Source: Escherichia coli | GTDB taxonomy: Bacteria > Pseudomonadota > Gammaproteobacteria > Enterobacterales > Enterobacteriaceae | Reading direction: 5' to 3' (one strand) | DNA: 64,000 bases | Assembly: GCF_003991155.1 (NCBI RefSeq) | Contig: NZ_CP031294.1 | Part shown: piece after piece, positions 31,504 through 41,460 of the stretch | How positions within the stretch are numbered: the first letter of the stretch is position 1 | Layout: every line of letters begins with the position of its first letter | Notes under the pieces: generated by a model | Databases searched by the model: none | The model's input: only the letters and a program-made list of their open reading frames with translations | What the model was told of the DNA's origin: nothing | Translations under genes and position numbers: made by a program

Positions 31504-33207
31504 TTAATTATTAAGCAATCTGCTCACACGTAGTTTGTTAAGACTTGATCTAGAGGCCAGTTTCGTTAATGCACCTATTGCTTTATTCGTGATTTTTTGC
31601 TGTTCTTCTGTTAGTTCTTGCATACTTTTGAATCTGAGCAACCCCTTTCTCACTAAATCCAAAGCATCCTGATTGCGGGATAATATCCACTTTAAATAAT
31701 CATCTTCAGAGAAACTGTTAAGATATGCTATGTCACTATGATTAAATTTGCCTTCAATTATTTTGTATAAAACATTCTCTAAATTAGTCTCTTCAGGCTT
31801 CTTATCCATCAATTTTTTTTGAATTAGCAGACCTAACGTTTCGTTACCAAATATCTCTACATACAAATTCCGAAAAGCAGTATAAGCATCATCTTGGCTA
31901 ACAAAGGCATCTGCATATGCCTCTATATAACTATCACAATCAATCTCCAATCTATTTAAGATATCAATCAAGCCTATGAAGTGAGCAACAGGTATGTGTG
32001 AAAGATTGTCGTTAATTACACATTTTATCTTAGAAATAAACTCAGATTCATTGTCCTTGAATGAGTCACTAAAAATATCCCAAACATTGTTAACCTCACA
32101 TAAAGCCTTGTGTTCTTTATATTGTTTATTTTTTTCTTCTATTATACCTCGAATATTGCTTTCAGTAGAAAGATAACCATTCTTGAGATAAAAATCTATG
32201 TCATCATCGAAAGCAATTTCCGCTCGTTCATAAATAATATCAAGACTATTAATAAATGAATATACAGAATCATCCTTTTTATCATCTAACATGTAATCAA
32301 ATACATGTATGTTTTTAATTGATTCTTTAAACAAGGCATAATCAACACCTGGAACACCAGAATAGTAAACCACTGAAAACAGAACCAATCTATTGATAAA
32401 ACTTTCTCTAACCTTATCCTCTGCCAAGCTTAGCTCATTCCTAAGATTAACCAGAGATGTTTTTATTTTATTTAATATACGGATATTTTTAATGCCTAAG
32501 TCATTTGCTAAGACTTTTAACAAAAGAAAATCAGAATCAGTTTCATAAAAAACTTTACGTAAGTTCTTCTCAGGCGTAGGATCGTATTTTATTTCGACAT
32601 CAATTACTTTTTCTCTGTACTCTAAAAACTGTTTTTTTGCAGTTTCATCATGTAAATTATCTTCATTTAAAATTAGAACAACTTTGCAACCTTTTCTTCT
32701 TGCTAATTCATCAATTACCCCCATAATTTCTTTAACTTCTAGCGAATTACCTTTTCTTTCAACATCATCAATACAAACCAAATAATTATTAACAAATTTA
32801 TACTCAAGAGATGACAGCAGGTTATCTGTTTTGAACCCAAAAAAATCGTTCTTTCCGAAATGTATTAAAAATTTTGACAAGGAGTTGTATTTCAACCATC
32901 CCCAAAACCCATTTCTATAACGAATCATAGTTCGATCCGTTTCAGATAAAATTAGTTCTTTATATTTCTTTTCATTAATTGGTGTGGCACAATGATAAAG
33001 AGTTTTTTTAATATCACCAATAGAGTTAACCCCAAACAAAGAAACATACGAATATGCATTAAAATCTAATCCTTCAGAATGCTTAGTATAAAAACTATTC
33101 CAATAATGAGTTTTACCAACGCCCCAATCTCCTTTTATGACGGCAACCCGATGATCTGAAACTAGAAAATTTTTTAGAAATGATTCTATCGATTCCATTA
33201 GTATCAA
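31504..33207 (-). CDS. AT-rich accessory gene: P-loop NTPase, KAP-family-like
   Basis: Walker A GDWGVGKTH near the N-terminus, Walker B LVCIDDVER; 567 aa; markedly lower GC than neighbours. Confidence 0.5.
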   Translation of the reverse strand: MILMESIESFLKNFLVSDHRVAVIKGDWGVGKTHYWNSFYTKHSEGLDFNAYSYVSLFGVNSIGDIKKTLYHCATPINEKKYKELILSETDRTMIRYRNGFWGWLKYNSLSKFLIHFGKNDFFGFKTDNLLSSLEYKFVNNYLVCIDDVERKGNSLEVKEIMGVIDELARRKGCKVVLILNEDNLHDETAKKQFLEYREKVIDVEIKYDPTPEKNLRKVFYETDSDFLLLKVLANDLGIKNIRILNKIKTSLVNLRNELSLAEDKVRESFINRLVLFSVVYYSGVPGVDYALFKESIKNIHVFDYMLDDKKDDSVYSFINSLDIIYERAEIAFDDDIDFYLKNGYLSTESNIRGIIEEKNKQYKEHKALCEVNNVWDIFSDSFKDNESEFISKIKCVINDNLSHIPVAHFIGLIDILNRLEIDCDSYIEAYADAFVSQDDAYTAFRNLYVEIFGNETLGLLIQKKLMDKKPEETNLENVLYKIIEGKFNHSDIAYLNSFSEDDYLKWILSRNQDALDLVRKGLLRFKSMQELTEEQQKITNKAIGALTKLASRSSLNKLRVSRLLNN

Positions 33208-33249
33208 TCCTTTAATTCATATATTGGGCGTAACAAACGCCCAATATAA

Positions 33250-33609
33250 TCAACCTTTCTTCATCAACTCTCGTTTAATTTCATCGGTACGCATCGTAAC
33301 GTCGGCAGCTGTGATCGCCTCGTTAAGCTTCACGATGTCCTCGATTTCCTGCGGTGACTTCTCTGCCAGATGGAAAATGGCTGCTCGAATCACGTCAGAA
33401 CGAGTGAACTTCTCGAAGCGAGGGATGAACTTCATCATCTCCAGCAGTTCGAAGTATTCGTCTTCCAGTGACATTGTGCGGCTTTTAATTTTCTCTTTGC
33501 CACGAGTCGGGCGTCCCTGTGGTCTGACTGGTTGGCGCAAAGGAGTTGTGTTCTTAGCCGGTGCATCAGGCTCTTTGCGCTTTGCTAGGTCACCCATTTT
33601 CATGGACAT
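33250..33609 (-). CDS. Small basic protein downstream of parA (possible ParG/RHH-like partition adaptor)
   Basis: 119 aa, translationally coupled to parA (shared coordinate 33609); role inferred from position only. Confidence 0.35.
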   Translation of the reverse strand: MSMKMGDLAKRKEPDAPAKNTTPLRQPVRPQGRPTRGKEKIKSRTMSLEDEYFELLEMMKFIPRFEKFTRSDVIRAAIFHLAEKSPQEIEDIVKLNEAITAADVTMRTDEIKRELMKKG

Positions 33610-34277
33610 TATTCTTCTTCCTCCAGACTCAACAGATAATCTACAAATTCTTCAAACTCGGCTTCCGCCTTTTTGTCGCGCTCGTTACCGGTCATTTCAA
33701 AGATAGAACGACCAGACTCTTCCGCATCATCATAGACGTTGCGGTTATATAGATTGACTGGCGCAGACTCGATGCCAAACGTCTCAACAATCTCTTTAGC
33801 CGCCAGAATGCGAGACACTTGTGATGGCAAAGCCGGGCACTGGTTCATGACCGCGCGGACCTTCACTTTATCGTTTACATTACGAACATTGTCGATAATA
33901 GGATCAATGTCACGTAAAGATTTCAAATCACGACGCTTAGGACGCAGCGGGATAATGATAACGTCAGCCATCAGCATCGCTTGTCGCTGAATTTCGGAGT
34001 CGAAGCCACCAGCATCTACCACTACAAACTCAGCTCTACCCTGAAGCGATTTTAGGTGCTTAATGATGTCATCCTGAACGTATGCAAAAGGAATCAGCTC
34101 AAGGTCTTCGTTCTGTCGACGGTCTTCACACCAGCTCGTTGTCGTGCGCTGAATATCTATATCGGTAATATAAACCTTCTTCTTCTTTTTGACTTTCAGG
34201 CAAACGGCAATTTGCTGGGCAACGGTGGATTTGCCAGGCCCGCCCTTTGTGCCGCCAACCACAAAGATCTTGGTCAT
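33609..34277 (-). CDS. parA: ParA/Soj-family partition ATPase
   Basis: Deviant Walker A GGTKGGPGKST at the N-terminus, ParA-like Walker A' and B segments (VVVDAGG). Confidence 0.65.
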   Translation of the reverse strand: MTKIFVVGGTKGGPGKSTVAQQIAVCLKVKKKKKVYITDIDIQRTTTSWCEDRRQNEDLELIPFAYVQDDIIKHLKSLQGRAEFVVVDAGGFDSEIQRQAMLMADVIIIPLRPKRRDLKSLRDIDPIIDNVRNVNDKVKVRAVMNQCPALPSQVSRILAAKEIVETFGIESAPVNLYNRNVYDDAEESGRSIFEMTGNERDKKAEAEFEEFVDYLLSLEEEE

Positions 34278-34453
34278 TGGAGAGTTCCCTTTGCGTATAT
34301 AATTATCGTCTGAAACAACTTGTTTTCTTATATGTGATATAGCCTAAATGCCTACGGCTGTGGTGTAAAGGTTAAATGGTAGGTGCTGCCTTAGAATTTT
34401 TAGGCGAGAATTAATGGCTGTTAACAAAAAAGGCGACCAAAGTCGCCTGATTT

Positions 34454-35206
34454 TTAATCTTTTAGGTATAAACCTACTGGAGTTCTTGTTTTGCGGGAGA
34501 TGATAAGTACGATAAATTTCTGAACGTTAACTTGCACTTTGTTTGGGAGCCAAGAGCTTAACTCTGCATCAAGCAACAATCCTCTGTTCCACGGCAAAAA
34601 TCCGGTTTCTTTCCCCATCCCGTACTCACCTAACACATCTTCGAACGTTTCTGTTTTGGCATTGTATATACGCACATCGCCGGTTCGCATGAGAGGCCCT
34701 GCCCAGATCTTAGCACCAGGAATGGTTTGTGTATCGTCGCAGACTAAATGCTCATACCAATGAAGAAGAAAGAGATAGGTACGGTGACACAATCCTCGCT
34801 GACGACGCTCTCTGACAGTTTCGACACCAGCTACCTGGTAACATTCGATCTCATTACCGTCTTCAACAAAACTATATTCACGCAGAGCTATCCTACCAGC
34901 GATCGTATTTTTGTTTTCGTCCAGAAGCCCGGACTGGAGCACCTCTTTGATAATCTCTTCTTCAGGGGCATCTTCATCCGCTCGATCTAAGATGAATTCG
35001 CTCAGGTCGCCTTGGTCGCGCGCACCTACACGTTCCATAGAGACATACAGGCAAATGTCATCTTCTGGTTCAATGATTTCAATTTCTGAGATTTTATAGA
35101 GGTAGGCTTCATTGATAAGAAAGCCAAAACGAACAACACGAGTCTCCCCTTTATGAGGAAACTCGCTTAGATCTTTTGAATATGCGCTATCTAGTGTAGG
35201 AGCCAT
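34454..35206 (-). CDS. Hypothetical protein
   Basis: 250-aa ORF. Confidence 0.45.
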   Translation of the reverse strand: MAPTLDSAYSKDLSEFPHKGETRVVRFGFLINEAYLYKISEIEIIEPEDDICLYVSMERVGARDQGDLSEFILDRADEDAPEEEIIKEVLQSGLLDENKNTIAGRIALREYSFVEDGNEIECYQVAGVETVRERRQRGLCHRTYLFLLHWYEHLVCDDTQTIPGAKIWAGPLMRTGDVRIYNAKTETFEDVLGEYGMGKETGFLPWNRGLLLDAELSSWLPNKVQVNVQKFIVLIISRKTRTPVGLYLKD

Positions 35207-35574
35207 TTTGTAGCAGAATCATCAGCCTTAACCGTGCTGACAATGCTACCATGATTGCGTAAGAAGCGGCGAATAGAATGTTCAATAACCTCCGAAAAAG
35301 CCTCGATAAAACGAGACAGCTCAGGGTACTGTTTAGCTGGCTTGACTACAAAACGAACACGACCATTCAGGTAAATTGCTTCAGCTAATGGCTTCACGCT
35401 TGCACCAGCGCGCTCAACATCGTCTTTGAAGGTAACGATGAAGCGTGAGTCTTCCGGTTCAATAGCGTCATTATTGAGCTTACGTACTTCAAGCTTGTGC
35501 TGATTCAGCACATGAGTCTCGATAATACTCGTGCAATCGCGAATAGTTTGTATAGAACGTTTCTCGTTCAGCAT
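35191..35574 (-). CDS. Hypothetical protein
   Basis: 127-aa ORF overlapping the downstream gene. Confidence 0.4.
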   Translation of the reverse strand: MLNEKRSIQTIRDCTSIIETHVLNQHKLEVRKLNNDAIEPEDSRFIVTFKDDVERAGASVKPLAEAIYLNGRVRFVVKPAKQYPELSRFIEAFSEVIEHSIRRFLRNHGSIVSTVKADDSATKWLLH

Positions 35575-35798
35575 GTGTCCACCTTAGCCGTTAACACAAG
35601 TGTCATTGCGGCACCCCTCTCGGGGTTGAAGGCTACGAGGATGCGTAGCCTGTATGTGCCCACTTACGTGGATGCCTAATAAATCTACATCAAATTACTA
35701 AATGATTCAACATGAGCTTGAGTGAACAGGCGTGTATATGAGTGAAGATGCCATCTTTAGGATAAAAGGTAAACTGAGACCACTCATCAATCATCGCC

Positions 35799-36026
35799 TC
35801 AGTTCAGGTGCCCCCACTCACACAGCCTTTCACCTATCGTATTGTGGATAAGCAACTGTCGCTCCGTTTCCTCAGTCATAAAATCCTCTCTACTCACATA
35901 GATAGGATTTGCAGCATCGCAGAATAGCACGCCTGGAGCCTGCGTCTTAATCACGCACCCATTTATCAAGCAGCTCGCGATGAACACCAGAGGCATCTTT
36001 TTGCCGCACTTCATTAACCGTTTCAT
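35799..36026 (-). CDS. Putative o-spanin (Rz1-like outer-membrane lipoprotein)
   Basis: Inside the 35799-36131 ORF, internal start MKRLMKCGKKMPLVFIASC gives a signal peptide with lipobox; overlaps the 3' end of the i-spanin gene in another frame. Confidence 0.4.
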   Translation of the reverse strand: MKRLMKCGKKMPLVFIASCLINGCVIKTQAPGVLFCDAANPIYVSREDFMTEETERQLLIHNTIGERLCEWGHLN

Positions 36027-36198
36027 TTTTGACATCCACTGTGCTTTGAAGTCGTTTTCTGTCTTCCTGTTTTGCCTTCTCTTCCATTGCTCGTCGCGCC
36101 GCATTTCCGCCCATCGTGTAAGCGCCGACAAGAACGAAAAGAACGGCAGCCAGCGTAATCAAAGCAACTTTTAGCTTTGTCATCAGGCTGCCTAGCAT
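35947..36198 (-). CDS. Putative i-spanin (Rz-like)
   Basis: N-terminal TM helix then charged periplasmic domain; directly downstream of the putative endolysin. Confidence 0.4.
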   Translation of the reverse strand: MLGSLMTKLKVALITLAAVLFVLVGAYTMGGNAARRAMEEKAKQEDRKRLQSTVDVKNETVNEVRQKDASGVHRELLDKWVRD

Positions 36199-36199
36199 A

Positions 36200-36919
36200 T
36201 TAGACCATCCCTTTCTGGTGTCTTCTTACCTGCGACCAGGCGATAAATCCAGCCACAACAATAGTGGCAATACCGAAGATGATGCGTACTGTATCCCCGC
36301 TAGAGATATGACCTTGTGCTTTATCCATAGCAGCGGAAACCTGCGGCATAACATCGGCCAGCTGCGCCAGACCAATACCTGCTGTAACAGTTGCGCCAGC
36401 GGTTTCTTTAGTTACAGGAACAGCCTTCACGGTTTTCACCGGCTTAACGACGCCAGCTCGACGCAGACCTTCCTCAATAACTTCTGCCGCATACCAGGTG
36501 TTCAGCGTTTTTAGTGGACCTCGACCATTCTCGTGGCGAATGATTGCCTCAACCAAAGGTCGAAGGATGTCGTAATCATGCAGATCGATGATCATGTCTG
36601 CGGTTACACCAACGGCTTTAGACACCTCATTAATGTAGGCGTCAGTGTTGTTTTCATTCGGCGGTGCCCAACGTTCAATAACTTCACGAATGGTATCGAT
36701 ACTTGAGCCGTCTTTTGCGCGACGTTTGTCGTGGTAGGTAATTAGAGTCACCGCCAGCGCACGAATCCCCCAAACAGGGTCTTTAAACGTGCAAAAGCGC
36801 GGTTCGTCTGGATTCGCAACCAGACCTTGCCACGGTGATCCTTTATCAAGATTACCGGGGTTATTATTACGAATGCCTCTCGGAGTCTTCATCCTTGATC
36901 TCCTGTTATTGCAGTCCAC
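36200..36919 (-). CDS. Putative endolysin / peptidoglycan hydrolase with C-terminal membrane anchor
   Basis: Position between holin-like and spanin genes; conserved-looking N-terminal segment GIRNNNPGNL; C-terminal hydrophobic helix (IIFGIATIVVAGFIAW). Enzymatic class not resolved. Confidence 0.4.
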   Translation of the reverse strand: MDCNNRRSRMKTPRGIRNNNPGNLDKGSPWQGLVANPDEPRFCTFKDPVWGIRALAVTLITYHDKRRAKDGSSIDTIREVIERWAPPNENNTDAYINEVSKAVGVTADMIIDLHDYDILRPLVEAIIRHENGRGPLKTLNTWYAAEVIEEGLRRAGVVKPVKTVKAVPVTKETAGATVTAGIGLAQLADVMPQVSAAMDKAQGHISSGDTVRIIFGIATIVVAGFIAWSQVRRHQKGMV

Positions 36920-37241
36920 TTTTTACGCCATACGCGGCTAACCCCAAAAGCAGTGCGGTAATAATGAACGACGTTATTTTAGAAACAATGCCGCCAAAGA
37001 ACCCACTTGAGATGGAATCTAACCGGTTAAGGAGTTTGTCCAGATTGGAGTGTTGAATACTATGTTGCGCCGGGGTCATATCACCAAAGTAGGTTTTCAG
37101 CTGATCATTGACCTCCTGGCCAATTTCTTCACGTAGCTCTTTACCTAATTTGCCAACAACCTCCCGAGCAACGATCGCGGCAATACGCTCAACTTGCTCT
37201 GTTGTAACGCCCGCCATCTCGTTCGACATGTTTTCCTCCAT
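36906..37241 (-). CDS. Lysis-associated membrane protein (holin-like)
   Basis: 111 aa with a single C-terminal TM helix; first gene of the lysis cluster. Confidence 0.3.
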   Translation of the reverse strand: MEENMSNEMAGVTTEQVERIAAIVAREVVGKLGKELREEIGQEVNDQLKTYFGDMTPAQHSIQHSNLDKLLNRLDSISSGFFGGIVSKITSFIITALLLGLAAYGVKSGLQ

Positions 37242-37431
37242 GAAAAGTCAAATCGGGATGGCGGATTTATATCACACTTCTCCTTTCAATTATAGGTATA
37301 TACTTACCTACCTATGCATATACCGTTTAACGGCTGTTCAAATTCGTATCTAGTAACTCACTAATATATCCCTATGATTGCGGCTGTGAGATCGCATTTT
37401 AAACCTCACAGCCATATAAATAATGTCTAAA

Positions 37432-40400
37432 TCAGTTACTTGTTGCCCCAACAGTACCTGCAAATTTCAGCCATTGACCTGACGGACTTCTATTACTACG
37501 GTAATGATAAACGAGGATTGCGTTTGTAACTCCACCGTAGTCAGCTTTATGTGACGTTGTTAAACGAATTGTATAATCACCGTTAGGTAGATTAAAAACT
37601 TCGATTATAGATTCTGCTAATTCTACAGCACCAAATCCCGTTATATTGTTGATACTGCCAGCATTGAATCCCATAGCATCGCCAAAGCCAATCCAATAAC
37701 TTTTGCTAAACGCCCCATTTGATTTTAGGTGGCTAATGAATGTGGACAAACTCATGCCCATATCCCCACCTGAAACAGAGGAAGTTCGCACAGTCATACT
37801 TGGAAGAGCACTGCTCTTCACATAGGAACTTAGAAGGTTTGTTACCTCTGTTTTCGTATAGGCATTAAGGTTAGCCGCAGTCAAAGTAATATCGGCAGAG
37901 CCATCAAACGCCACACCAGCAATTTTCCTTGCTGTCTGCAATTTTGTGGCAGTGGCAGCATTACCAGTAGTGTTCTGATTACCGGTTGTATTCACACCAG
38001 GTATTGAATCCTTAGCGGTATATACCTGCGCCCACGCAGACCATGCCGCATCAGTGGTATCTCTTCGGGAGCGAATGAAAACCGGCGCATGTGCACCGCT
38101 CGTACCACTCCAGCCAATAAGCAACTCGCCCTCACCAGCAGCACTCGCACCTTTCATGTGCAATACGTTGCCATACGTGGTCGGGTAGCTATTGCTGTAC
38201 GCCTCGTACATTTGAATGCCAGCAGTACCTTGAGCAGAACCGCTTAACGCCGTAACTCGGCCACGAGATACCAATGTATTAATGTTGATATCGCCTGAGC
38301 CATCAAACTTAACACCATTGATGTTTCTCGCTGTTTGCAACTTCGTAGCTGTTGAAGCATTACCGTTCAAACTACCATTTACGCCACCAGTCACATTTAG
38401 TCCATTACCAATTGATACAGCACCGCTGGTATTATTAATTGTAATAGGTCGCAAACCGTTCCATGAACCTAATGTGTCTCCTGATGCTGTTAGCATGAAA
38501 TATGTGTTCGATCCATCATTACGGATAAAGAACCCAAAGCTACCGTAAGCAATGCGGAAACCATTTGCATATTTTGAAATGATCTCGCCAGAAGATGTCA
38601 AACCTCCAGATAATGTACCACCGGTAAGAGGTAATGCACCGACATCAGAGGCTGTTGGTTTGTTTTTCGTGTTATATACTCTTCGCCATCCTGGAGAATA
38701 ATCTGTGCCATTAAATACATAGATAAACTCCGCATTAGTGAGAGCACCAGAGACACTCGTCGTTGTGGCCGTTGTTATACGGATCGTATAATTGTTTGAG
38801 CTACTACCGTTATTAAATACCTCTATAACAGCTCCTGCCAATGGAATAACGCCACAACCAGTTTCACTATTTGGTATGGTTGCACTATTGGCATAGGCCC
38901 ACGCACATCGAGCAATCCATGACTTTGTGTTAAATGCTCCATTATTTTGCAATAACGTCACTAACTGTGCTGTTGTTATTGCTCCGCCATTACTTCCTGT
39001 AGTTAACCAACCAGTAGGAGATGCCGGGCAACCTATATTTGCTGGCGACAAGGAAATATTTGCCGAGCCGTCAAACGACACCCCATTAATAGTACGCGCA
39101 GTCTGCAACTTCGTAGCAGTAGCCGCGTTGCCCGTTGTATTCTGATTACCAGTCGTATTAACACCTGGCAAATTAATATTCGCAGTACCATCAAAGCTCA
39201 CGCCGCCGATAGTTCTTGCCGTCTGAAGTTTTGTAGCAGTTGCAGCATTACCAGTGGTGTTCTGATTACCCGTAGTATTTACACCTGGAAGGTTGATATT
39301 TGCAGAACCGTCGAAACCAACTCCACCGATAGATCTTGCCGTCTGCAATTTCGTGGCTGTACTTGCATTACCATTCAATGAACCAGTTAATCCACCTGTA
39401 ACAGACAACGGACCTGAAACTGTTCCTCCGGTTGTTGGCAGTGCTCCAATATCTGATGGTGTAGGTTTCTGATGTGAGCTATACATCGTATAAACAACAC
39501 CATCGGTAACGCTGGAAGGCTTACTCGCTGAATATGTTGGCGAGGTATAAATAGAAACTGTCGCATTTGCAGTACAATCCCAATGGATATTTACACGAGT
39601 CGCATAATTGCCAATCTCAACGTAAATATCATATGTATCGCCGGATGTGTTGATCCAGGCGAAATTCGTTAATCCGACAGCTGTACGCTTCCACAAAGCA
39701 CCTGTAATCCCTTTGGGGTTTCCATTGCCTGCTCGTAGAACCAGTTCTGAAATGCCTGCCTGATGTGGGGAGCCGACGTTGTAACCAGCGCCACCAATCA
39801 ATGCGATGTAAACGATGGAACTCGCTTGTGGCATGGTAACCGTAGCCAGTTTGAACCACCCTGCCCCGCCAGAGAAAGACATCGTTACTGAATTTAAAGT
39901 ACCAATATCTTTCGGCGTTAATGTGATATCCGCAGTCAGTGCTTTACCGTTAACTTTTCGGTTAGATGGCACCCTGCTATTCGCATTGTCATTGGCTGCT
40001 TTAACTGCTTTTGGCGTTGCGGCCAGCGATTCACTGGTGCTGTCGACAGCACTGCTAAGTTTCACAACACCTTTAGTTGTAAGGCTTGCGTCTTCCATCG
40101 CAACTGCACCGGCAATCTCTTCAGCACGATCAGCAGCAGCTTCCGCACGGGTCGCAGCGGATTCAGCAGCAGTTTTGCTCTGAGATGCTGCCGTCGCACT
40201 GCCTGCCGCCTCTGTTGCTTTCGTGGATGCCGTCGTGGCACTGCCCTTCGCTGCTGACGCCTGTCTGGTCGCCTCATCTTTTGAAGCAGACGCAGATGAT
40301 GCCGATGACGCCGCCGAACTGGCGGACGATGCGGCAGCCGTTTTTGAGGATTCTGCGCTGGTTTCCGACGCTTTCGCGTTCGTTTCGGATGTCTTCGCTG

Positions 40401-41460
40401 CGGAAGCAGACCTCGCTGCTGCGCTGGCCTGTTCAGTGGCTTCGCCAGCCTTCGTTGTGGCTGTTGAAGCAGACGATGCGGCACTTTCTGCCGATTTTCC
40501 GGCGGCGGTGGCACTGGCTGAGGCCTGCCCGGCACTTGTTGACGCGGCACTGGCAGACGACGCAGCCGCTGTTTTTGAGCCTGCCGCAGCTGAGGCACTC
40601 TGTGCTGCTGCCGTCTCAGAAGACTTAGCGTTCGTCTCGGACGTTTTTGCCGCCTTCGCGGAATTGCCTGCCGCTGTTGCCGAGGAGGCTGCACTACTGG
40701 CGCTCAAGGATGCGTTCGTTTCTGATGATTTCGCTGCCTCTTTTGAGGCCGCCGCATCCCGGACTGAGGTGGCAGCTTCTGACGCTTTCGTGGTCGCGGT
40801 GGATGCAGAAGTGGCTGCTGATTGTTGTGACGCTGCGGCATTCGTTTCAGATTTTTTCGCAGCAGTTGCACTCGCACTTGCGGCACTTTGTGAGGATGCC
40901 GCAGCGGATGCACTTTGAGACGCTTGAGAGGCTTTTTCTCCAGCGGTATTGGCGCTTTCTGCTGCTGCGGCAGCACTGGCCGCCGCCTCACGAGCTTTGT
41001 CGCCAGCAGCATCAATCGCGTCAGTGTTATTTTTATACCACTCAACGTTTTCGTTGTGCTCGTTGACGATCTGCATTAGCGGCTTAACGGTTACTTCTGT
41101 ACCGTCTTCACGCTCGATTGTCACCTCATCCAGAGCAGTCAACCAACTGCGCATAGACTTGGAATCAGCCGACATACGCGACATTAGTGCTGTAAAGCGC
41201 GCGCTAAACTGTGTTAAGTCGCCTTCATAGGTCGTAATGATTCGGCACGGAACCTCAGACTGAGTTTCGCCGGTATAAGGTTCTGAGAGAACAATATTCG
41301 TATCGCTTATTACGCGCTTGATCTCATACAGCTTATTGTCGGGGCCAATGACGATCATCCCCGGCAACACACCATTAGCTGTTACGTTCCAGGCTGTCCC
41401 TGCCCCAACCAGAGTATTGCTACCCTGTGTAAATGTGATAGTACCTTCCCTGTACCACAT
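37432..41460 (-). CDS. Side tail fiber protein
   Basis: 1342 aa; long Ala/Ser/Thr-rich coiled segment; five copies of the fibre repeat ATKLQTAR.I.GV.FDG.A.I; C-terminal receptor-binding-like domain. Confidence 0.7.
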   Translation of the reverse strand: MWYREGTITFTQGSNTLVGAGTAWNVTANGVLPGMIVIGPDNKLYEIKRVISDTNIVLSEPYTGETQSEVPCRIITTYEGDLTQFSARFTALMSRMSADSKSMRSWLTALDEVTIEREDGTEVTVKPLMQIVNEHNENVEWYKNNTDAIDAAGDKAREAAASAAAAAESANTAGEKASQASQSASAAASSQSAASASATAAKKSETNAAASQQSAATSASTATTKASEAATSVRDAAASKEAAKSSETNASLSASSAASSATAAGNSAKAAKTSETNAKSSETAAAQSASAAAGSKTAAASSASAASTSAGQASASATAAGKSAESAASSASTATTKAGEATEQASAAARSASAAKTSETNAKASETSAESSKTAAASSASSAASSASSASASKDEATRQASAAKGSATTASTKATEAAGSATAASQSKTAAESAATRAEAAADRAEEIAGAVAMEDASLTTKGVVKLSSAVDSTSESLAATPKAVKAANDNANSRVPSNRKVNGKALTADITLTPKDIGTLNSVTMSFSGGAGWFKLATVTMPQASSIVYIALIGGAGYNVGSPHQAGISELVLRAGNGNPKGITGALWKRTAVGLTNFAWINTSGDTYDIYVEIGNYATRVNIHWDCTANATVSIYTSPTYSASKPSSVTDGVVYTMYSSHQKPTPSDIGALPTTGGTVSGPLSVTGGLTGSLNGNASTATKLQTARSIGGVGFDGSANINLPGVNTTGNQNTTGNAATATKLQTARTIGGVSFDGTANINLPGVNTTGNQNTTGNAATATKLQTARTINGVSFDGSANISLSPANIGCPASPTGWLTTGSNGGAITTAQLVTLLQNNGAFNTKSWIARCAWAYANSATIPNSETGCGVIPLAGAVIEVFNNGSSSNNYTIRITTATTTSVSGALTNAEFIYVFNGTDYSPGWRRVYNTKNKPTASDVGALPLTGGTLSGGLTSSGEIISKYANGFRIAYGSFGFFIRNDGSNTYFMLTASGDTLGSWNGLRPITINNTSGAVSIGNGLNVTGGVNGSLNGNASTATKLQTARNINGVKFDGSGDININTLVSRGRVTALSGSAQGTAGIQMYEAYSNSYPTTYGNVLHMKGASAAGEGELLIGWSGTSGAHAPVFIRSRRDTTDAAWSAWAQVYTAKDSIPGVNTTGNQNTTGNAATATKLQTARKIAGVAFDGSADITLTAANLNAYTKTEVTNLLSSYVKSSALPSMTVRTSSVSGGDMGMSLSTFISHLKSNGAFSKSYWIGFGDAMGFNAGSINNITGFGAVELAESIIEVFNLPNGDYTIRLTTSHKADYGGVTNAILVYHYRSNRSPSGQWLKFAGTVGATSN

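Follow-up and report, generated by a model that had tools for sequence, protein, structure and literature searches.

The second gene of a putative lysis cassette in an Escherichia coli element encodes a protein with a hydrophilic N-terminus and a transmembrane (TM) helix near its C-terminus. This arrangement raises the question of whether the protein is the endolysin of the element and how an enzyme anchored in this way would reach the cell wall.

The lysis cassette and its gene boundaries

The window, that is, the whole stretch of 64,000 nucleotides that was analysed, matched plasmid NZ_OW849379.1 at 100%, with identical coordinates. With megablast, its cassette resembled those of phage Cyrano (94%) and phage SSU5 (83%). 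A 5-kb stretch comprising the cassette and its flanks (33000–38000) matched 736 plasmid records from Klebsiella, Escherichia, Enterobacter and Salmonella. Judged by its sequence, the element is an SSU5-like phage-plasmid, and positions 35799–37229 on the minus strand are its predicted late lysis cassette. An earlier note on this DNA had recognized the gene order of a lysis cassette with overlapped spanins, and four minus-strand open reading frames (ORFs) confirmed it: the first encodes a single-TM protein of 107 aa, the second a protein of 230 aa, and the last two the i-spanin and its overlapped o-spanin. The genes were delimited as follows.

36906–37229, minus strand: holin-like gene, 107 aa (ORF; PGAP call; PHROG 5093; GGAGG before the ATG)
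36200–36892, minus strand: putative endolysin gene, 230 aa (AGGAG; PDB 7Q47; PHROG 873; Foldseek)
35947–36198, minus strand: putative i-spanin gene, 83 aa (PHROG 1026 'Rz-like spanin'; N-terminal TM)
35799–36026, minus strand: putative o-spanin gene, 75 aa (start at 36026) or 71 aa (start at 36014) (PHROG 1275; lipobox)

For the endolysin gene, an ATG at 36892 with AGGAG 8 nt upstream was favoured over a GTG at 36919. The resulting length of 230 aa agreed with the PGAP call in the NZ_OW849379.1 record, and also with how SSU5 and Cyrano are annotated. For the holin-like gene, the ATG at 37229 with GGAGG upstream gave a protein of 107 aa, not 111 aa. The 239-aa and 111-aa ORFs thus begin too early, because the Shine–Dalgarno sites favour 36892 and 37229. 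With the corrected starts, the two genes were 13 nt apart and did not overlap. The PHROG matches had E-values of 9e-89 (lysin), 2e-68 (holin-like protein), 4e-25 (i-spanin) and 3e-25 (o-spanin), and we consider the four ORFs to be real conserved genes and not chance ORFs. In the RefSeq record of NZ_OW849379.1, the endolysin gene was labelled 'membrane protein', and 'hypothetical protein' was given for the genes beside it. When all four proteins were scanned against Pfam-A and NCBIfam, nothing but sub-threshold noise was returned (DUF6187, TraQ and similar). For the two ORFs that follow the spanins downstream, neither PADLOC nor Pfam gave a match, and a promoter and terminator scan of 35400–37600 was uninformative, with fewer matches than in shuffled controls.

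An identical order of the four genes was found in SSU5 (SSU5_026–030) and Cyrano, where their annotations read holin, endolysin and spanins (Rz, Rz1). Identities to the SSU5 proteins were 95% (holin-like protein), 94% (lysin), 82% (i-spanin, SSU5_028) and 75% (o-spanin, SSU5_029). Unlike the window, SSU5 had additional small membrane and Cor genes between tail fibre and holin, and Cyrano had a KacT toxin–antitoxin pair downstream of the cassette. No experimental tests of SSU5/Cyrano-type cassettes were found in the searched literature.

Catalytic domain of the predicted endolysin

Three features were located in the N-terminal part of the 230-aa protein.

36443–36892, minus strand: predicted catalytic domain, residues 1–150 (7Q47 alignment; conservation; AlphaFold)
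36851–36877, minus strand: GIRNNNPGN motif, within the catalytic domain
36530–36532, minus strand: Glu121 codon (RHENG motif; counterpart of the proposed catalytic Glu131 of Enc34)

A phmmer search against the PDB matched residues 1–151 to 7Q47, the crystallised catalytic domain of the Hafnia phage Enc34 endolysin (E=1.5e-54, 59% identity). The AlphaFold2 model had a pLDDT of 75–97 across residues 30–150, and its top Foldseek match was again 7Q47 (E=8e-16, TMt 0.82, 59% identity), with an all-helical fold. The protein also matched PHROG 873 'endolysin'. In the Enc34 endolysin, Glu131 was proposed to be catalytic and Trp79 and Tyr95 to be groove residues (PMC8943055). The aligned residues of the 230-aa protein (E121, W75 and Y86) were 100% conserved in 105 full-length relatives, among which the GIRNNNPGN motif was nearly invariant. 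The earlier note had been unable to place the protein in a standard lysozyme, amidase or endopeptidase family. In agreement with this, none of the standard lysozyme, transglycosylase, amidase and peptidase profiles in Pfam-A and NCBIfam (GH24, GH23/SLT, GH73, GH108, Amidase_2/3, M15 and others) gave a significant match. A distant structural kinship of the Enc34 domain to the alpha-lobe of GH73/GH23 has been claimed (PMC8943055).

The 230-aa protein is accordingly annotated here as a predicted endolysin of the Enc34/M4Lys type, with a PHA02564-family peptidoglycan glycosidase domain and a C-terminal membrane domain. Soluble domains of homologues degrade Gram-negative peptidoglycan (PMC8943055, PMC7143992), and muralytic activity was published for Enc34 ORF39deltaC (PMC8943055) and for M4LysdeltaTMD (PMC7143992). 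M4Lys is reported to act as a glucosaminidase; the 230-aa protein may be one too, or a lytic transglycosylase or muramidase. By analogy with these homologues, which are 55–59% identical, the 230-aa protein would be muralytic and would depend on its membrane domain for lysis. The match to the Enc34 structure (TM-score 0.82) and the activity of the homologues bear out the earlier idea of a non-canonical, membrane-tethered lysin.

The protein could instead be a virion protein or another membrane protein, with the endolysin encoded elsewhere. Its catalytic family is provisionally named 'virion protein' (PHA02564), the domain heads podophage internal core proteins (Gp29 of E1004 in 9VVP; 'internal virion protein D' of Kayfunavirus), and the RefSeq label is merely 'membrane protein'. 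However, the gene is flanked by the holin-like gene and the spanin genes, and full-length homologues lyse E. coli from within. A different endolysin gene, which the earlier note had named, together with a lack of muralytic activity, as the finding that would overturn its proposal, was looked for: no second endolysin was annotated in the related phage SSU5, and the tape measure, J-like and fibre proteins of the window had no lysin domain. We regard this alternative as highly improbable.

A PHROG 1768 'endolysin' match on the tape measure protein was rejected, as it covered a coiled region only and Pfam identified TMP domains only.

Relatives of the predicted endolysin

Enc34 ORF39 resembled the 230-aa protein in its catalytic domain (59% identical, with the same all-helical fold and the same Trp/Tyr/Glu groove residues), in its C-terminal two-helix membrane domain, in the order of the cassette and in the overlapped spanin pair. 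Enc34 is a Chi-related virulent siphovirus, whereas the element described here is an SSU5-like phage-plasmid. In addition, the first gene of the Enc34 cassette encodes a protein with an N-terminal TM helix, while the protein at this position in the window is unrelated and has its TM helix at the C-terminus. M4Lys of Salmonella phage BSPM4, corresponding to the Chi-like 'lysis protein A', was approximately 55–56% identical over the whole length and shared both membrane segments and the basic tail. In vivo lysis data exist for no other homologue. M4Lys differed in its genetic context: the upstream 'lysis protein B' had no similarity to the 107-aa protein, and the i-spanin was just 24–31% identical.

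The motifs GIRNxNPGN, RWAP and RHENG also occurred in Pseudomonas phage endolysins of 138–155 aa (JBD69 gp25, Komp_PAO1_1), in podophage core proteins (E1004 Gp29, PDB 9VVP) and in the P5 lysin of Vinavirales. Unlike the 230-aa protein, these soluble and virion-borne versions of the catalytic domain had no C-terminal membrane domain. A separate 73-aa two-TM holin was encoded directly after the lysin gene in Komp_PAO1_1.

A similar architecture was found in LysAP of Acidovorax phage AP1, an endolysin of approximately 227 aa whose TM helix covers residues 194–216 (PMC8879335). This helix is needed for membrane localisation and lysis, and LysAP alone lyses E. coli (PMC8879335). The holin of the same phage, HolAP, is described as type III with a TM helix at residues 32–54 (PMC8879335). 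Unlike the PHA02564-family domain of the 230-aa protein, the catalytic domain of LysAP is GH24 lysozyme-like, and the shared architecture looks convergent.

The membrane domain and its topology

Two segments were distinguished in the C-terminal part of the predicted endolysin.

36326–36403, minus strand: putative membrane segment 1, residues 164–189 (weakly hydrophobic, Gly/Ala/Thr-rich)
36227–36289, minus strand: predicted membrane segment 2, residues 202–222 (clear TM helix)

The Kyte–Doolittle 19-residue mean of segment 2 was 2.07, and values of at least 1.6 were reached in 99% of relatives. Segment 2 contained a conserved G207 and a small-residue face (T210xxxA214xxxA218) and was followed by the basic tail RRHQKGMV. 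Two features that the earlier note had described in the middle protein were confirmed, namely the C-terminal TM helix, now placed at residues 202–222, and the GIRNNNPGN segment, nearly invariant in the 105 relatives; the length of 239 aa was replaced by 230 aa. Segment 1 had a KD19 maximum of 1.11 (family median 1.18) and reached the usual TM hydropathy threshold in just 8% of relatives. It contained the invariant residues G174, Q177 and A188 and an acidic D180, and could be an interfacial helix instead of spanning the membrane. The AlphaFold confidence was below 50 for residues 156–199, so the model lends no structural support to a hairpin. The full-length protein, including both helices, was 56% identical to lysis protein A of Chi-like phages.

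The net charge was +3 in the linker before segment 1, −1 in the loop and +3 in the C-terminal tail, with family means of +2.1, −1.1 and +2.4, respectively. This conserved pattern, which is a new observation, suggests that the topology is an N-in/C-in hairpin and not a reversed SAR anchor. Residues 1–160 had a maximum hydropathy of 1.08 and no hydrophobic stretch, and the N-terminus (MKTPRGIRNNNPGNLDKGSPWQG) was hydrophilic. The hydrophobic segments were located solely in the C-terminal part, and the N-terminal weakly hydrophobic domain by which SAR endolysins are recognized was missing. Together, the charge pattern and the missing N-terminal export signal fit a cytoplasmic enzyme held by a hairpin better than an exported, tethered enzyme.

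In SAR endolysins, the SAR domain is N-terminal and Sec-exported, and P1 Lyz and R21 of phage 21 work with pinholins. These enzymes resemble the 230-aa protein as membrane-tethered muralytic enzymes with a weakly hydrophobic Gly/Ala-rich helix, and they can also cause lysis without a holin upon over-expression (PMC8943055). They differ in that the hydrophobic region of the 230-aa protein is C-terminal and its N-terminus hydrophilic, in that lysis by the homologue is azide-insensitive, and in their unrelated catalytic families.

The earlier note had considered a SAR-like mechanism in reverse topology. In this scenario, the distal helix would be the sole anchor (N-out/C-in) and would hold an exported, inactive catalytic domain on the periplasmic side, which would be freed or activated when the 107-aa protein acted as a pinholin and depolarised the membrane, as for SAR endolysins. 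The basic C-terminal tail favours C-in, and segment 1 is too weakly hydrophobic for a confident TM helix. Moreover, the topology programs used by the M4Lys authors gave N-out, and these authors predicted one TM helix with a periplasmic N-terminus (PMC7143992), while the Enc34 authors floated SAR-like tether and release as a speculation (PMC8943055). Against this, no N-terminal signal or hydrophobic stretch was present in residues 1–160. The scenario would require a folded domain of approximately 160–200 residues to traverse the membrane before its C-terminal anchor, for which no mechanism is known according to the Enc34 authors (PMC8943055). The linker preceding segment 1 matches the tail in basicity and the loop is acidic; a hairpin whose two ends both lie inside has this pattern. 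Finally, full-length M4Lys alone lyses E. coli without a holin, and inhibition of Sec by azide does not stop this lysis (PMC7143992). With a charge pattern of +3/−1/+3 and no N-terminal export signal, the reverse topology is not favoured, and we consider it improbable.

M4Lys without its membrane domain no longer caused lysis, and the membrane domain alone was bacteriostatic only (PMC7143992). In a divergent relative (locus L015), W75, Y86 and E121 were lost and the membrane domain was nearly intact, which suggests that the membrane domain has a function of its own.

The origin of the membrane domain by fusion with a free-standing holin was not supported for the holins tested: an HMM of residues 155–230 from the 105 relatives gave scores near zero. 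The targets were the 2-TM proteins beside PHROG 5093 members and the holins or small proteins beside soluble lysins in Pseudomonas phages.

The holin-like protein

The N-terminal region of the 107-aa protein was helical and acidic, and its single TM helix lay at the extreme C-terminus. The single TM helix described earlier was confirmed, and the associated length of 111 aa was corrected to 107 aa. Two features were mapped.

36924–37004, minus strand: hydrophobic C-terminal segment, residues about 76–102, core ITSFIITALLLGLAAYGV (Kyte–Doolittle scan; AlphaFold)
37050–37091, minus strand: conserved motif YFGDMTPAQHSIQH of the holin-like family (alignment of remote relatives)

AlphaFold predicted a helix at residues 53–104 (pLDDT 89.5). 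The TM helix was followed by just five residues (KSGLQ), and the charged domain was N-terminal. Holins typically carry a charged C-terminal tail, which the 107-aa protein seems to lack. The protein belonged to PHROG 5093 (function unknown), in which the family motif YFGDMxPxQHxxQH was conserved; G49, H56 and H60 were invariant across 35 remote relatives. In the annotations of Cyrano and SSU5, the gene is called 'Holin' or 'putative holin'. Pfam and NCBIfam revealed no homology to known holin families, BLASTP gave no match to the Chi-like lysis protein B, and a search of viral predicted structures (BFVD) with the AlphaFold model returned nothing below E=4. The literature that was searched contained no experimental work on members of PHROG 5093.

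A lambda-style antiholin dual start (MEENMSNEM) is not claimed, as a Shine–Dalgarno site was present only at the second ATG and no basic residue lay between the two starts.

The holin-like gene was always directly upstream of the lysin gene in SSU5-like elements. A PHROG 5093 gene directly preceded Enc34-type lysins in the window and in loci L007 and L011, a GH108+PG_binding_3 lysin in L010 and a Peptidase_M15_3 lysin in L014. The holin-like gene thus precedes three unrelated endolysin types, which is a new observation. Seven remote PHROG 5093 loci were inspected. In four of these (L009, L012, L013 and L014), the PHROG 5093 member adjoined a small 2-TM protein, one of which matched PHROG 1528 'holin'. 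This small neighbour could be the real holin in those four loci. In L010, with the GH108 lysin, no 2-TM partner was evident.

These loci also bear on the possibility that the 107-aa protein is no holin but acts as antiholin-like regulator, or as chaperone, of a two-helix hole-former, which would be the lysin's C-terminal domain in this element and a separate 2-TM protein elsewhere. The adjoining two-helix proteins are consistent with such a role, as are the conserved, cytoplasmic-looking helical domain, the invariant histidines and the near absence of a C-terminal tail. M4Lys lyses cells alone, and co-expression of its upstream gene slightly delays lysis (PMC7143992). However, that upstream gene belongs to an unrelated family, so the delay does not transfer to the 107-aa protein. 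The case is also weakened by L010, which had no evident 2-TM partner, by the lack of sequence similarity between the lysin membrane domain and the 2-TM proteins, and by a base of seven remote loci. A regulator of this kind is conceivable and, in our view, rather unlikely.

The spanins

The i-spanin had a TM helix at residues about 8–30, followed by a short charged periplasmic domain. The o-spanin was not the whole 110-aa ORF in which it was found: the start of its gene, at 36026 or 36014, lies within the i-spanin gene, and the end, at 35799, lies 148 nt past that gene, in an overlapped architecture. The PHROG 1275 match covered residues 40–108 of this ORF. The o-spanin signal sequence, MKRLMKCGKKMPLVFIAS-CLING-C, offered two possible lipobox cysteines (IAS-C or ING-C). 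The o-spanin was 47% identical to the Chi-like Rz1, and the SSU5 o-spanin has been placed in the 'Chi' family (PMC6139136). The last two genes are thus predicted to form an overlapped two-component spanin related to those of Chi-like phages.

Proposed lysis mechanism

We consider it probable that the locus is an SSU5-like cassette composed of an Enc34/M4Lys-type endolysin with a C-terminal hairpin, a 107-aa holin or timer, and the spanins. In this model, the membrane domain would insert post-translationally as an N-in/C-in hairpin, with a basic linker and tail and an acidic loop, and the enzyme would therefore gather at the inner membrane, on its cytoplasmic side. The hairpin, composed of the weak Gly/Ala/Thr-rich helix 1 and the strong helix 2 with its small-residue face, would help to form a membrane lesion. 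The lesion would let the catalytic domain reach the wall, making the hairpin a built-in holin-like module. The upstream tail-anchored 107-aa protein would act as a separate holin or timing partner, and the spanins would finally fuse the inner and outer membranes.

A weakness of the hairpin model is that a tethered cytoplasmic enzyme would have to pass through the lesion. No resolved mechanism of wall access for this endolysin type was found in the searched literature.

A further-reaching reading is that the C-terminal hairpin is an autonomous hole-former, i.e. that the protein is a natural holin–endolysin fusion, and that PHROG 5093 is an undescribed class of tail-anchored lysis timers. We put this forward tentatively, as a speculation with the odds against it. 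The PHROG 5093 timer may be either a holin or a holin partner that works with several unrelated endolysin types. If this reading were true, the membrane domain would do the essential job in the L015 lineage.

Significance

The architecture, structure and lysis phenotype of this endolysin type were published in 2020–2022; the finding is thus real but not new. Its value for annotation lies in the catalytic domain, which has no Pfam or NCBIfam model, and consequently the lysis genes of a clinically widespread group of phage-plasmids are systematically unnamed. The abundant E. coli phage-plasmids, together with the isolated phages Cyrano and SSU5, are a tractable system for studying how a signal-less, C-terminally anchored endolysin gains access to the cell wall.

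Lysis cassette and its genetic element

The stretch matched plasmid P2 of E. coli isolate 162 (NZ_OW849379.1), a 110,667-bp replicon typed as IncFIB and non-mobilizable, with 100% identity and identical coordinates, and shared 94% identity with Escherichia phage Cyrano and 83% with Salmonella phage SSU5. Based on this sequence likeness and the plasmid identity, the window was assigned to an SSU5-like phage-plasmid. Four consecutive minus-strand ORFs at 35799–37241, with a 1342-aa tail-fibre ORF directly upstream and two unknown genes and parA downstream, confirmed, together with their PHROG matches, the four-gene lysis cassette proposed earlier at this location:

Start 37229 (ATG preceded by GGAGG), minus strand: holin-like protein, 107 aa; PHROG family 5093, function unknown (E=2e-68)
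Start 36892 (ATG, AGGAG 8 nt before it), minus strand: endolysin, 230 aa; PHROG endolysin (E=9e-89)
Third gene, minus strand: i-spanin, 83 aa, N-terminal transmembrane (TM) helix; PHROG Rz-like spanin (E=4e-25)
Start 36026 or 36014 (both within the third gene), end 35799, minus strand: o-spanin, lipoprotein signal MKRLMKCGKKMPLVFIAS|CLING|C; PHROG Rz-like spanin (E=3e-25)

The start codons chosen in the earlier note (GTG 36919 for the endolysin, ATG 37241 for the holin-like protein) had no Shine-Dalgarno-like site in their context, and the boundaries were corrected. Since AGGAG and GGAGG precede 36892 and 37229, the proteins are 230 and 107 aa, matching the PGAP calls in NZ_OW849379.1 as well as the genes annotated in phages Cyrano and SSU5.

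The o-spanin was 47% identical to the Rz1 of Chi-like phages and the i-spanin 24–31% identical to its Chi-like counterpart. The SSU5 spanin pair has been listed as overlapped, with the o-spanin in the 'Chi' family (Kongari et al., PMC6139136). The possibility that the endolysin is encoded elsewhere was not borne out: the RefSeq annotation of SSU5 names a single endolysin, and only tail domains were detected with Pfam in the tape measure, J-like and fibre proteins of the window. A PHROG 'endolysin' match of the tape measure was rejected as a second lysin, as it covers a coiled region only.

Two overlapping genes between parA and the spanins (34454–35574, minus strand) encoded proteins of 250 aa (PHROG 3307) and 127 aa (PHROG 2594), neither with a Pfam or PADLOC match. 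In phage Cyrano this position is occupied by a toxin-antitoxin pair of the KacT type, which suggests that the locus is accessory and variable. A 567-aa KAP-family P-loop NTPase (31504–33207, minus strand; Pfam E=1.6e-5) was encoded two genes from parA, on the side far from the lysis genes. The tail-fibre gene (37432–41460, minus strand; PGAP start at 41016, ORF extending to 41460) contained five direct repeats of approximately 77 nt, 71–77% identical and three of them spaced 120 nt, which encode the repeated peptide NTTGNQNTTGNAATATKLQTAR..GV.FDGS.

Catalytic domain of the endolysin

The 230-aa protein gave no significant match in Pfam-A or NCBIfam, which explains why it could not be placed in the earlier note. 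In a search of PDB sequences, residues 1–151 matched 7Q47, the endolysin catalytic domain from Hafnia phage Enc34 (E=1.5e-54); a further match was to 9VVP, a phage core protein of 1295 aa, at its N-terminus (E=6e-22). An AlphaFold2 model, built with 39 relatives, was confident over residues 30–150, and Foldseek likewise returned 7Q47 as the top PDB match (E=8e-16, TM-score 0.82 on target, 59% identity). Glu131, named as catalytic in Enc34, and the conserved groove residues Trp79 and Tyr95 (PMC8943055) aligned with E121, W75 and Y86. These three residues were invariant in 105 full-length relatives, as, within the GIRNNNPGN motif, were G6, N11, P12, G13 and N14. Once their outer membrane is permeabilised, E. 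coli, P. aeruginosa and H. alvei are lysed by the soluble Enc34 domain; the full-length enzyme is toxic (PMC8943055).

Including its membrane domain, the protein shared 56% identity with the M4Lys-type 'lysis protein A' found in Chi-like Salmonella phages. Every sequence-testable defining feature places it in the Enc34/M4Lys endolysin type, and this match upheld the main interpretation of the earlier note, a lysis cassette with a non-canonical, membrane-tethered lysin. The same catalytic domain occurs without the membrane domain in soluble endolysins of Pseudomonas phages, in podophage core proteins and in the Vinavirales P5 lysin. A GH24 domain with a C-terminal TM helix, published for Acidovorax phage AP1 (PMC8879335), looks like a convergent architecture. 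In Pseudomonas phage Komp_PAO1_1 (locus L018, 1486–2171), the gene of a soluble 155-aa lysin overlaps by 4 nt the following gene for a 73-aa two-TM holin. From a gene order of this kind, a lysin could become fused to a membrane domain; the two-TM holin had no sequence similarity to the membrane domain of the 230-aa protein.

Membrane domain and topology

The C-terminal TM helix reported earlier was clear at residues 202–222 (Kyte-Doolittle 19-residue mean 2.07). A preceding segment, residues 164–189, was weakly hydrophobic (1.11) and Gly/Ala/Thr-rich; G174, Q177 and A188 were invariant, and an acidic residue was conserved at 180. It passed the standard TM threshold in only 8% of relatives, and AlphaFold confidence was low for residues 156–199. 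The linker before it was basic (window +3; mean of the 105 relatives +2.1), the loop between the segments acidic (−1; −1.1) and the C-terminal tail basic (+3; +2.4). Because of this pattern, we infer from the positive-inside rule that the membrane domain is a hairpin of two helices whose ends both face the cytoplasm. The earlier suggestion of a signal-anchor-release (SAR)-like mechanism in reverse topology is not favoured, as the charges do not follow the pattern of a reverse signal anchor. Nor is the protein a SAR endolysin, since, unlike in those enzymes, its N-terminus is hydrophilic; a hydropathy scan found no hydrophobic stretch within residues 1–160.

M4Lys of phage BSPM4 lyses E. coli when expressed alone, and this lysis is not blocked by azide. 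Removal of its membrane domain abolishes lysis, the membrane domain by itself is bacteriostatic, and peptidoglycan breakdown by the soluble domain shows an N-acetylglucosaminidase signature (PMC7143992). A hairpin at the extreme C-terminus would be inserted post-translationally, which fits the azide-insensitive lysis. The route of the enzyme to the wall was described as unknown by the Enc34 authors (PMC8943055), and no later resolution was found in the literature searched. The favoured model is that the enzyme would wait at the cytoplasmic face and the hairpin would help to create the lesion. Small-residue faces are common among self-associating TM helices, and the second segment has a conserved one (G207 and T210xxxA214xxxA218).

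A protein in the endolysin slot of a divergent SSU5-like contig (L015, 10241–10936; identical to L011, 2868–3563) is an oddity that supports this model. All three active-site residues were lost (W75 to E, Y86 to R and E121 to Y; RHENG to VMYNG), but the membrane domain was almost intact (98.5 bits against the TMD profile), and the hydropathy of its first segment sufficed for a TM helix call. The 15-kb contig showed no further lysin.

Holin-like protein

The 107-aa protein, with no match in Pfam or NCBIfam, consisted of an acidic helical N-terminal part and a single TM helix followed by only five C-terminal residues. It had no similarity to the first gene product of the Chi-like cassette. Among phage genomes, it was restricted to SSU5-like elements, and searching 1.84 billion representative proteins with a profile yielded only 57 relatives. 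These have the motif YFGDMxPxQHxxQH in common, and G49, H56 and H60 were invariant in an alignment with 35 remote relatives. In the window (37050–37091), the Gly and the two His four positions apart (QHxxQH) lie just before the membrane helix, and this invariance extends to relatives of 20–30% identity. A specific interaction or a metal site may account for this conservation.

Seven remote loci were inspected for gene context. Family members lay directly upstream of Enc34-type lysins (L007, L011), a GH108+PG_binding_3 lysin (L010) and a Peptidase_M15_3 lysin (L014), which supports a role in lysis regardless of lysin type. In four loci (L009, L012, L013, L014), a small protein with two hydrophobic helices also adjoined the family member, and one of these matched a PHROG 'holin'. 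Given both the placement upstream of lysins and these neighbours, the 107-aa protein may be either a holin or a holin partner.

Annotation state and significance

The architecture, structure and phenotype of this endolysin type were already published in 2020–2022, and annotation of the SSU5 cassette goes back years. In NZ_OW849379.1, RefSeq/PGAP lists the endolysin as 'membrane protein' and the holin-like protein and i-spanin as 'hypothetical protein'; the o-spanin is missing from the gene table. A 5-kb query covering the cassette and its flanks (33000–38000) matched 736 plasmid records, which leaves this group of phage-plasmids with largely unnamed lysis genes. The interest that remains lies in the export mechanism of the endolysin, in the PHROG 5093 family and in the poor annotation of the endolysin gene in RefSeq plasmids.
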